Source: Escherichia coli
GTDB taxonomy: Bacteria > Pseudomonadota > Gammaproteobacteria > Enterobacterales > Enterobacteriaceae
Direction: 5' to 3' (one strand)
DNA length: 64,000 bases
NCBI RefSeq assembly: GCF_022846255.1
Contig: NZ_AP025682.1
The notes below the pieces were generated by a model. The model was not told the origin of the DNA. It saw only the letters and a program-made list of their open reading frames with translations, and made no database searches. Both the position numbers and the translations under genes were made by a program. How positions within the stretch are numbered: the stretch's first letter is position 1; each line of letters begins with the position of its first letter. This document shows positions 45,235-47,744 of this stretch, piece after piece.

Positions 45235-46578
45235 ATGTTAAACAGTATTTTAGTCATACTCTGTTTGATCGCTGTAAGTGCGTTCTTCTCGATGTCCGAG
45301 ATCTCGCTTGCCGCCTCACGCAAAATCAAACTTAAACTGCTGGCTGATGAAGGCAATATAAATGCCCAACGCGTTTTGAATATGCAGGAAAATCCCGGCA
45401 TGTTCTTTACCGTGGTCCAGATCGGTCTGAACGCAGTGGCGATTCTCGGCGGTATCGTCGGTGATGCGGCATTTTCTCCAGCTTTTCACAGCCTGTTCTC
45501 CCGCTATATGTCGGCAGAACTCTCTGAGCAACTGAGCTTTATTCTCTCTTTCTCGTTAGTGACTGGCATGTTTATCCTGTTTGCGGATTTAACCCCGAAA
45601 CGCATCGGTATGATTGCGCCAGAAGCTGTGGCTTTGCGTATCATCAACCCGATGCGCTTCTGCCTGTACGTTTGCACCCCGCTGGTGTGGTTCTTCAACG
45701 GACTGGCGAACATAATCTTCCGTATTTTCAAACTGCCAATGGTACGTAAAGATGACATCACTTCTGATGACATCTACGCGGTAGTGGAAGCCGGTGCGCT
45801 GGCGGGCGTGTTACGTAAACAGGAACACGAGCTGATTGAAAACGTCTTTGAACTAGAATCCCGTACCGTTCCGTCGTCAATGACACCGCGTGAAAACGTG
45901 ATTTGGTTTGATCTCCACGAAGATGAGCAAAGTCTGAAGAATAAGGTGGCGGAACATCCGCACTCTAAGTTCCTCGTCTGTAATGAAGATATTGACCACA
46001 TCATCGGCTATGTCGATTCTAAAGACCTGCTGAACCGCGTGCTGGCTAACCAAAGCCTGGCACTGAACAGCGGCGTACAAATTCGCAACACGCTGATTGT
46101 GCCGGATACGTTAACCCTTTCAGAAGCGTTGGAAAGTTTTAAAACCGCAGGTGAAGACTTCGCGGTGATCATGAACGAGTACGCGCTGGTAGTGGGGATC
46201 ATCACCCTCAACGACGTGATGACCACGCTGATGGGCGATCTGGTCGGTCAGGGGCTGGAAGAGCAGATTGTCGCCCGTGATGAGAACTCATGGCTGATAG
46301 ATGGCGGCACTCCGATTGACGACGTCATGCGCGTGCTGGATATTGACGAGTTCCCGCAGTCGGGCAACTACGAAACCATCGGCGGCTTTATGATGTTTAT
46401 GCTGCGTAAGATCCCGAAACGCACCGATTCGGTGAAATTCGCCGGCTACAAATTTGAAGTGGTGGATATCGATAACTACCGCATCGACCAGCTGCTGGTG
46501 ACCCGAATCGACAGCAAAGCCACCGCCCTTTCGCCAAAACTGCCTGACGCTAAAGATAAAGAAGAAAGCGTCGCATAA
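45235..46578 (+). CDS. ytfL: Inner-membrane CNNM/CorC-family protein YtfL (PaeA), DUF21 + CBS pair + CorC_HlyC
   Basis: 447-aa ORF with N-terminal TM domain followed by CBS-pair region. Confidence 0.9.
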   Translation: MLNSILVILCLIAVSAFFSMSEISLAASRKIKLKLLADEGNINAQRVLNMQENPGMFFTVVQIGLNAVAILGGIVGDAAFSPAFHSLFSRYMSAELSEQLSFILSFSLVTGMFILFADLTPKRIGMIAPEAVALRIINPMRFCLYVCTPLVWFFNGLANIIFRIFKLPMVRKDDITSDDIYAVVEAGALAGVLRKQEHELIENVFELESRTVPSSMTPRENVIWFDLHEDEQSLKNKVAEHPHSKFLVCNEDIDHIIGYVDSKDLLNRVLANQSLALNSGVQIRNTLIVPDTLTLSEALESFKTAGEDFAVIMNEYALVVGIITLNDVMTTLMGDLVGQGLEEQIVARDENSWLIDGGTPIDDVMRVLDIDEFPQSGNYETIGGFMMFMLRKIPKRTDSVKFAGYKFEVVDIDNYRIDQLLVTRIDSKATALSPKLPDAKDKEESVA

Positions 46579-46592
46579 CCCCAGAAACATCA

Positions 46593-46615
46593 ACGGCTCC
46601 TGAATCAGGAGCCGT
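46593..46615. terminator. Hairpin terminator between convergent ytfL and ytfK
   Basis: acggctcctga-a-tcaggagccgt near-perfect palindrome. Confidence 0.6.
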
Positions 46616-46655
46616 CTTATTACTGCATAGCACTTTTTACTGCATAGCACTTTGG

Positions 46656-46862
46656 TTAAGCCATCTCTGTTTGCAGACGCATAACCTGACGGTTAACTTC
46701 GGACATCACTGACAAATGCAGCTTATCCTTCACTTTTGGGATAAGAATCTTACCCTTATCAAATTCAAAAGCGCCAACGTCCTTGATGTATAACCGTCCA
46801 CGGAACAGGATCTTTACGTACTTCGCCACCTGAAGTGGGTTGTACCGTTGGAAAATTTTCAT
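46656..46862 (-). CDS. ytfK: Small protein YtfK (DUF1107)
   Basis: 68 aa from ATG at 46862 with AGGAGA RBS ([20 protein letters not shown]...). Confidence 0.85.
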
Positions 46863-47186
46863 TGTTATCTCCTGCTGAGTATTACGCCTTTGCGGTGCCA
46901 CAATCGGCCCAACTATTATGAGGCGCAAATTTTAATGCCTAGTGACTATAGACTATCCGGGCAATGTTTCCACCGCGTATAACTTTTTTTACCTAAAGGT
47001 TACAATTATTCAGAATTATCTTTTTACCGAAGCGCGGTCTTCAGTATAAGCATTCATTTTTCATATGATTTGTGCGCTTGACCGCAAACTGGCATCACAC
47101 TTGCGGGAAATTCGATAAATAGCACATATGATTAAAACTCAGACCCAAGTGGTCGGATCACCTGCATATCATAAGAAGGAAACACC

Positions 47187-47744
47187 ATGACCCTACGCAA
47201 GATTCTGGCACTCACCTGCCTGCTGTTGCCGATGATGGCTTCCGCACATCAGTTCGAAACCGGTCAGCGAGTGCCGCCGATTGGCATCACCGATCGTGGC
47301 GAGTTGGTGCTTGATAAAGATCAGTTTAGCTACAAAACCTGGAACAGCGCGCAGTTAGTGGGAAAAGTGCGAGTACTGCAACATATTGCTGGTCGCACCT
47401 CTGCAAAAGAGAAAAACGCGACGCTGATTGAAGCGATTAAATCAGCGAAGTTACCGCACGATCGTTACCAGACCACCACCATTGTTAACACCGACGACGC
47501 GATTCCGGGTTCAGGGATGTTTGTGCGCAGCAGTCTGGAGAGTAATAAAAAGCTTTATCCCTGGTCGCAGTTTATTGTTGATAGCAATGGCGTCGCACGC
47601 GGTGCCTGGCAGCTGGATGAAAAAAGTTCCGCTGTAGTGGTGCTGGATAAAGACGGTCGCGTGCAATGGGCCAAAGACGGGGCACTTACTCAGGAAGAGG
47701 TGCAGCAAGTGATGGACCTGCTGCATAAATTAATTAATAAATAG
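47187..47744 (+). CDS. ytfJ: Periplasmic protein YtfJ
   Basis: 185-aa ORF with signal peptide; 3' end overlaps cysQ 3' end by 11 bp. Confidence 0.88.

Follow-up and report, generated by a model that had tools for sequence, protein, structure and literature searches.

A variable-number tandem repeat in the Escherichia coli ytfK 3'UTR and its probable role in docking the sRNA FnrS

The ytfK 3'UTR of Escherichia coli contains a variable-number tandem repeat (VNTR) whose 17-nt unit is most plausibly an FnrS docking site, with sponge- or decoy-like capture of this sRNA as the probable outcome. The unit has the contiguous antisense complementarity, the Hfq association in vivo (published tables) and the conservation of both site and sRNA that characterize a pairing site. 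Copy number ranges from one to four among complete E. coli genomes.

Repeat anatomy and copy number in E. coli

The window, which is the whole 64,000-nt stretch of E. coli DNA that was analyzed, has a perfect 2 x 17 bp tandem repeat at 46620-46653 with the unit TTACTGCATAGCACTTT on the plus strand. The window letters are gtctta, two consecutive copies of ttactgcatagcacttt, and then ggttaa; the wider flanks of the two copies are GAGCCGTCTTA before and GGTTAAGCC after on the plus strand. The preliminary description of this DNA reported a 17-bp tandem duplication, and the two copies are indeed identical (Table 1). Its coordinates, 46621-46654, mark the same duplication in a register that is off by one base and gives a 16/17 match. 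Tandem Repeats Finder analysis of the window reported a period of 17, 2.2 copies and a score of 69, and a separate repeat search returned the identical pair. The flanking bases break the repeat (46619 is a and 46636 is t; 46654 is g and 46637 is t), so there are exactly 2.0 copies and no microhomology at the junction. The chance expectation for a perfect 17-bp tandem copy in 64 kb is ~4e-6 (64,000 x 4^-17).

The repeat is located in the ytfK 3'UTR between the ytfK stop codon and the bidirectional terminator hairpin shared by paeA (ytfL) and ytfK, a placement made in the preliminary description that agrees with the open reading frames, the hairpin and the RefSeq annotation. The terminator-side unit is single-copy in most E. 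coli and in all outgroups. The tail past the hairpin is UUGAUGUUU, an interrupted U-tract, and the terminator stem with the tail GCCGUUGAUGUUU is conserved across genera. Alignment of the 1-, 2- and 3-copy alleles shows that the hairpin-adjoining sequence is identical in all copy-number alleles, and termination of either gene should thus be unaffected. Promoter and terminator scans of the locus returned nothing beyond the bidirectional hairpin. When 46300-47200 was compared with Rfam under a permissive E-value, no family fell on the repeat, and two chance archaeal snoRNA matches lay elsewhere. The descending terminator stem plus tail GGAGCCGUUGAUGUUU (window 46579-46592, minus-strand tail; ~1745-1760 of the recovered loci) is identical in 66-71% of 80 species, which equals the conservation of the FnrS site despite the interrupted U-tract within the paeA 3'UTR on the other strand.

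Table 1. Coordinates of the repeat, the FnrS-complementary sites and neighboring features in the window, and of fnrS in the recovered loci.
Feature	Position	Strand	Sequence or description	Basis or remark
Terminator-adjoining repeat copy	46620..46636		TTACTGCATAGCACTTT on plus strand; AAAGUGCUAUGCAGUAA in ytfK mRNA	Identical to the other copy
Stop-codon-adjoining repeat copy	46637..46653		Extra relative to the 1-copy allele	Missing in 1-copy HKUOPY1 and AVS0285
FnrS-complementary site B	46619..46633	-	GUGCUAUGCAGUAAU, 15 nt; pairs with FnrS nt 64-78	Exact matches and duplex energy
FnrS-complementary site A	46637..46650	-	GUGCUAUGCAGUAA, 14 nt; pairs with FnrS nt 65-78	Starts 6 nt past stop
Possible auxiliary block UAAGACG	46613..46619	-	FnrS nt 44-50	RNAduplex prediction; tentative
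Bidirectional intrinsic-terminator hairpin, paeA (ytfL) and ytfK convergent	46593..46615		11-nt perfectly complementary arms	Terminator-like on both strands
ytfK CDS	46656..46862	-	68 aa, stringent-response modulator YtfK; stop 46656-46658	ORF list and RefSeq annotation of homologous loci
paeA (ytfL) CDS, convergent neighbor	45235..46578	+		ORF list and RefSeq annotation of homologous loci
fnrS in recovered loci	K-12 2130-2251; six other genera ~1779-1900

Four megablast designs were used to survey 5,426 complete E. coli genomes, and shares are given among ~5,413 of these. One copy is found in ~77% (~4,170), two in ~19% (~1,030), three in ~4% (~217) and four in at least three genomes; the set over-represents K-12 derivatives and O157:H7, and these frequencies are not population estimates. 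The 2-copy window query was near-identical in 1,040 genomes, and the 1-copy query placed 1,031 genomes within the identity band of a single 17-nt gap. A 3-copy core had a coverage of 80% or more in 1,243 genomes, a number that takes in all alleles with at least two copies. A synthetic 4-copy query with 110-nt flanks was exact in 3 genomes (strain 472, O157:H7 PA20 and 20R2R), and a further 217 genomes in its one-gap band were interpreted as having three copies. Alignment revealed perfect 1-, 2- and 3-copy alleles with unchanged flanks, including a perfect 3 x 17 bp array in O157:H7 FRIK944. The comparison across E. coli genomes suggested in the preliminary description thus finds a polymorphic locus of 1-4 copies rather than a duplication identical in all strains. 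Its proposal that the duplication might be strain-specific does not hold; the 2-copy strains include K-12 MG1655, EPEC E2348/69, IHE3034 and O55:H7. Within O157:H7 the number is 2, 3 or 4, and the inspected 3- and 4-copy examples look like O157:H7.

Copy number was compared with the flanking haplotype. The window strain is B2-type and its closest matches are LF82 and NRG 857C (99.4% over 20 kb). Its flanks differ from those of the 1-copy strain AVS0285 at 2/780 nt and from those of 2-copy K-12 at 12, and the K-12 flanks differ from those of 1-copy HKUOPY1 at 2/780 nt. The 2-copy alleles lie on B2-, A- and E-type flanks with 6-14 mutual differences. Near-identical flanks with different copy numbers indicate independent copy-number change on at least three haplotype backgrounds. 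The locus is a VNTR, with head-to-tail copies, variation between strains and recurrent stepwise change. A full-text search that covered few subscription journals found no typing scheme or paper that names the ytfK repeat as a VNTR.

A few genomes depart from this pattern in other ways. In E. coli RM13745 (NZ_CP044312.1 297754-300795) the locus is rearranged, paeA is a truncated pseudogene, ytfK is a shorter 180-nt 'DUF1107 family protein' gene, and 44 nt of the query are the sole match. The ytfK-paeA segment has three matches on plasmid-class records, and ~6 genomes are without any match. E. coli E69 (CP089930.1, ~1708-1725 of the recovered locus) has a 1-copy allele with one A fewer before the site (CCAAGUGCUAUGCAGUAA).

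The ancestral state was examined with loci from 80 Enterobacteriaceae species, retrieved by means of the YtfK protein. In the Escherichia species other than E. coli and in the other genera among them, the core is present at most once and never in tandem, so one copy is ancestral. The duplication junction, CACTTT joined to TTACTG (CACTTTTTACTG), has no microhomology. The nearest microhomology, CTT...CTT 17 bp apart, would yield CACTTATTACTG, and the observed junction CACTTTTTACTG differs from it. When the CACTTATTACTG junction was searched for, the top of the ranking was filled by 1-copy genomes that align at 100% as two joined pieces. The founding 2-copy allele would have arisen in one rare microhomology-free duplication, and slippage or unequal exchange between perfect copies would then have led to repeated collapse from 2 to 1 and expansion from 2 to 3 to 4. 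The slippage origin first proposed for the duplication fits the 2-to-1, 2-to-3 and 3-to-4 steps well; the junction of the original 1-to-2 event is without microhomology.

Complementarity to FnrS, conservation and pairing on Hfq

The annotated K-12 fnrS gene contains UUUUUUGAAUUACUGCAUAGCACAAUUG, within which TTACTGCATAGCAC corresponds to FnrS nt 65-78. This 14-mer occurs on the plus strand of the window at 46620-46633 and 46637-46650 and nowhere else, where 0 occurrences are expected. The ytfK gene is on the minus strand, and its mRNA therefore bears the exact FnrS complement twice. Each unit contributes GUGCUAUGCAGUAA to the ytfK mRNA as a perfect 14-15-nt complement of FnrS nt 64/65-78, and at the terminator-proximal copy FnrS A64 joins the duplex, which is then 15 nt long. 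Judged from its sequence, the repeat unit is a conserved FnrS-complementary site of the ytfK 3'UTR, a point that the preliminary description missed, and not an anonymous spacer.

Pairing energies were computed from local duplex and opening-energy calculations; full-length duplex folding gave unrealistic all-intermolecular structures. The 31-nt segment of the 1-copy allele (site plus flanks) pairs with FnrS at -28.2 kcal/mol compared to -10.4 ± 2.7 kcal/mol for 2,000 shuffles, and the 14-bp core duplex has an energy of -21.8 kcal/mol. The balance is still favorable once the costs of opening FnrS (3.4 kcal/mol) and the site (2.9-6.5 kcal/mol across the 1- to 4-copy alleles) have been subtracted; every copy is thus predicted to be a competent FnrS site. 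The sequence AGUGCU within the unit is self-complementary between copies when G.U pairs are allowed. Multi-copy alleles have a predicted weak inter-copy hairpin that adds 2-3 kcal/mol to the site-opening energy and makes the site slightly less open. The possible auxiliary block, one pair of which is G.U, extends into the terminator stem. It is not kept outside Escherichia; in other genera the partner of the FnrS U-tract is an A-rich spacer.

FnrS itself is nearly invariant. The fnrS gene was recovered downstream of zntB in Salmonella, Citrobacter freundii, Raoultella, Phytobacter, Leclercia and Kosakonia with Rfam RF01796 scores of 130-135 bits. FnrS nt 1-93 are 100% identical in 7 genera (Escherichia, Salmonella, Citrobacter, Raoultella, Phytobacter, Leclercia and Kosakonia), and the terminator loop alone varies. 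Nucleotides 62-87 form a small hairpin in the Rfam consensus, and the mutants cited in PMC8595263 assign no function to this segment.

The matching element in ytfK is a conserved island just past the stop codon across genera (GTGCTATGCAGTA). The core motif is present in the ytfK 3'UTR of 64/80 Enterobacteriaceae species and starts 7 nt past the stop codon in 39 of these 64. Contiguous Watson-Crick complementarity to FnrS of at least 13 nt is found in 52/80 species, or in 60/80 with G.U pairs included, with a maximum run of 25 nt. Other genera reach 16-25 nt of complementarity through different flanking bases that still match FnrS. Kosakonia and Citrobacter amalonaticus have 23-25-nt runs in which an A-rich spacer pairs with the FnrS U-tract, and the duplex reaches FnrS U56-61 in Citrobacter, Kosakonia and others. 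The sole frequent substitution is A to G (Citrobacter freundii group and Raoultella), which keeps a G.U pair. Such one-sided, pairing-preserving A-to-G changes are the sole kind seen opposite the FnrS segment, which does not vary among the 7 genera. The 13-mer is identical to that of E. coli in 61% of the 80 species, calculated over all species and not conditioned on motif presence, compared to a mean of 30% for 13-nt windows of the ytfK coding sequence. It exceeds 90% of these coding windows, and neighboring UTR windows have 6-23% identity. Klebsiella species lack the site and have 6-8 nt of complementarity to FnrS; the nearest relative with a sampled FnrS is Raoultella, in which FnrS is unchanged. 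A second GC(A/G)GUA half-site lies a few nt downstream of the full site in 8/80 species (Leclercia, Lelliottia, Citrobacter sp. and Phytobacter 3'UTRs), which suggests that FnrS-complementary sequence may have been partially and independently reiterated outside E. coli.

Published RIL-seq tables report the pair directly. A 'highly abundant FnrS-ytfK' RIL-seq pair is mentioned in PMC12262471, and in the K-12 Hfq-FLAG data ytfK.EST3UTR-fnrS is rank 1 in both wild-type replicates with 112,573 and 85,192 chimeras (PMC12262471 supplements). It exceeds the second pair, ChiX-chiP/ChiZ, by 2.4-fold in replicate 1 and 1.7-fold in replicate 2, and ytfK takes ~21% of the FnrS chimeras (112,573 of ~539,000) (PMC12262471). 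Within the top-25 table, flxA follows as FnrS partner with 4,697 chimeras, a number that ytfK exceeds 24-fold (PMC12262471). The K-12 source of the rank-1 chimera is a 2-copy strain. In Hfq mutants, ytfK-fnrS falls to rank 51 or is undetected with the rim mutant R16A, is at ranks 57 and 42 with Y25D, and is at rank 2 with K31A (PMC12262471). The chimeras have ytfK as RNA1 and FnrS as RNA2, the usual target-sRNA order (PMC12262471). The same preprint states that the FnrS-ytfK pair was undetected by iRIL-seq (PMC12262471). RIL-seq in EPEC E2348/69, which has 2 copies, yielded a modest count of 197 ytfK-fnrS chimeras (p = 1e-180; PMC8550237 supplement), and the ytfK fragment at 4796407-4796514 covers both repeats (4796474-4796507). 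Besides regulation, the abundance of the RNAs and the geometry of ligation influence chimera counts. The ytfK mRNA was 31.8-fold enriched by Hfq co-immunoprecipitation in Salmonella (PMC2515195).

Other sRNAs are linked to this transcript. The ytfK 5'UTR (window 46863-46945, minus strand) forms Hfq CLASH chimeras with ChiX and CpxQ, and the ytfK coding region does so with GcvB (PMC7213987 supplement). A BhsB-ytfK pair was reported by Bar et al. The ytfK mRNA thus seems to be contacted by several sRNAs at both ends.

Possible consequences of FnrS docking

Under low oxygen, FNR-induced FnrS would dock through Hfq on the ytfK 3'UTR. The most likely consequence would be stoichiometric capture of the sRNA by a sponge or decoy mechanism, probably with reciprocal destabilization. 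The ytfK mRNA is abundant and has been reported to be induced by PhoB, sigma-S and oxidants, and it would titrate FnrS away from FnrS-repressed targets. Extra copies would give each transcript more capacity and would also place at least one site beyond the reach of a ribosome terminating at the ytfK stop codon. A stop-proximal site 6 nt past the stop is within the expected footprint of the terminating ribosome, and the site 17 nt further would be free. Four points favor capture: a fifth of FnrS pairing events involve one partner, the match is long and perfect, translational repression has no route from this location, and sigma-S alters Salmonella ytfK RNA and not protein. The large share of sRNA pairing events looked for in a sponge is found here, as ~21% of the FnrS chimeras in the published table. 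The defined FnrS pairing regions are G4/G5, C47-U49 and U57-U59 (mutants fnrS-I/II/III; PMC8595263). The E. coli ytfK site pairs with FnrS nt 64-78 and is outside nt 4-5, 47-49 and 57-59, so its occupancy might not block FnrS action elsewhere, which weakens the sponge argument.

A serious rival to capture is that ytfK is a canonical target, with FnrS docking mainly lowering ytfK mRNA and YtfK under anaerobiosis, for example by RNase E recruitment or 3'-end exposure. FnrS activity elsewhere would then be little affected, and extra copies would mean stronger repression. All of the pairing evidence applies equally to this reading, and it fits the logic of a regulon in which oxidative-stress and aerobic functions, sodA and sodB among them, are repressed by FnrS. 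The ytfK gene is tied to H2O2 tolerance and paraquat induction (PMC8175672), the order of the RNAs in the chimeras is that of a target and its sRNA, and binding outside the known FnrS seeds need not inactivate FnrS. Several points count against a target. FnrS targets known before rseA were subject to negative regulation only (PMC8595263). It is not obvious how a 3'UTR site beside a strong terminator would repress translation. Validated FnrS targets pair near ribosome-binding sites. The commitment of about one-fifth of FnrS chimeras to one partner resembles the ChiX-chiP/ChiZ decoy pair at rank 2, and the change in ytfK RNA but not protein with sigma-S in Salmonella (PMC5437024) hints at a role at the RNA level. 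On balance the target reading is a minority possibility. The searchable literature, which covers few subscription journals, contained no experiment on a pairing-dependent change in mRNA, protein or sRNA level for FnrS-ytfK.

Comparably tentative is the view that the copy number is a neutral slippage polymorphism without phenotype, in which the FnrS site is in the unit by chance and the alleles drift or hitch-hike with successful clones (K-12 derivatives, O157:H7 and some B2 STs). Perfect copies and stepwise changes within the young O55:H7/O157:H7 lineage (2, 3 and 4) are those of ordinary VNTR loci used in typing, most E. coli have one copy and no other number was seen outside the species, and the terminator-adjoining sequence is the same in all alleles. 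A neutral array of two copies should collapse easily, and one copy is nearly absorbing because the junction is without microhomology; 2-copy alleles nonetheless persist on three distinct local haplotypes. Each added unit is also a complete, accessible, high-affinity predicted FnrS site of the most abundant Hfq-bound pair, and a dosage effect is therefore plausible.

The capture reading can be extended further. In this stronger and rather doubtful form, the ytfK 3'UTR would be a dedicated, conserved FnrS sponge whose capacity is tuned in E. coli by a contingency-type VNTR of 1-4 sites.

A DNA-level or other non-FnrS element (a protein-binding site, paeA terminator context or a REP-like repeat) with a coincidental likeness to FnrS is very improbable: the motif does include a short inverted repeat (TGC-ATA-GCA) and lies directly beside the T-tract of the paeA terminator, but the 14-mer is at this locus alone in the 64-kb window without an Rfam match, other genera extend the complementarity to 16-25 nt with different, FnrS-matching flanks, the frequent substitution preserves RNA pairing (G.U), and RIL-seq detects the RNA duplex directly. 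A dispersed REP/BIME-like repeat was considered separately and rejected, as the 14-mer with at most one mismatch is confined to two adjacent positions in the 64-kb window.

Significance and comparison with known systems

The FnrS-ytfK pairing is already in public tables; the site-level explanation, its conservation and the 1-4-copy polymorphism appear to be new. A literature search that covered few subscription journals returned no paper on the FnrS site of ytfK or on the duplication and function of this site. For the most abundant Hfq-mediated RNA pair in published K-12 data there is now a pairing site, which matches an invariant part of FnrS perfectly over 14-15 nt. Conservation of the site extends across the Enterobacteriaceae, and the laboratory strain K-12 carries a duplicated version. 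Natural isolates provide an allelic series of 1, 2, 3 and 4 sites in which site number can be related to the strength of sRNA regulation. The pairing links YtfK, a stringent-response modulator (phosphate and oxidative stress), to the anaerobic FnrS circuit, and the locus is a simple, previously unlisted VNTR that varies within O157:H7. If sponge tuning is true, lineages such as K-12, several B2 clones and O157:H7 would show heritable, reversible differences in the strength of FnrS-regulon buffering upon ytfK induction by phosphate starvation, stationary phase or oxidants. It would be the first case in bacteria in which natural variation in the copy number of an sRNA-binding site is shown to set regulatory strength.

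The ytfK site resembles other FnrS partners in its Hfq-dependent pairing and in the anaerobic versus oxidative theme. FnrS targets include sodA, sodB and marA (PMC8595263), and flxA and dmsA are FnrS partners in the RIL-seq tables. Unlike the FnrS sites defined with mutants at nt 4-5, 47-49 and 57-59, the ytfK site uses nt 64-78, is in a 3'UTR, is a perfect 14-15-nt match and is repeated. As in the mRNA-borne sponges (the chbBC intergenic region and ChiZ/chiP for ChiX, SroC for GcvB, and 3'ETS-leuZ for RyhB/RybB), extended complementarity would capture one Hfq-dependent sRNA, and ChiX-chiP/ChiZ is the sole pair that approaches FnrS-ytfK in chimera abundance. Unlike those sponges, the putative ytfK sponge site lies in the 3'UTR of a protein-coding mRNA right after the stop codon and outside the characterized FnrS seeds. 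We know of no bacterial sponge with natural tandem copy-number variation of its binding site. The repeat is like the VNTR/MLVA loci of E. coli O157:H7 and generic loci of this type in its short perfect units, its stepwise change within clones and its intergenic or UTR position; it differs from them in a unit with an identifiable RNA function and in a small copy range of 1-4. The GGA repeats of CsrB and CsrC, which bind CsrA, and the miR-7 sites of CDR1as are reiterated sites that multiply the capacity of one transcript, as at ytfK. Their repeat numbers are fixed and their hosts are dedicated non-coding RNAs, whereas the number at ytfK varies by strain and the host is an mRNA.
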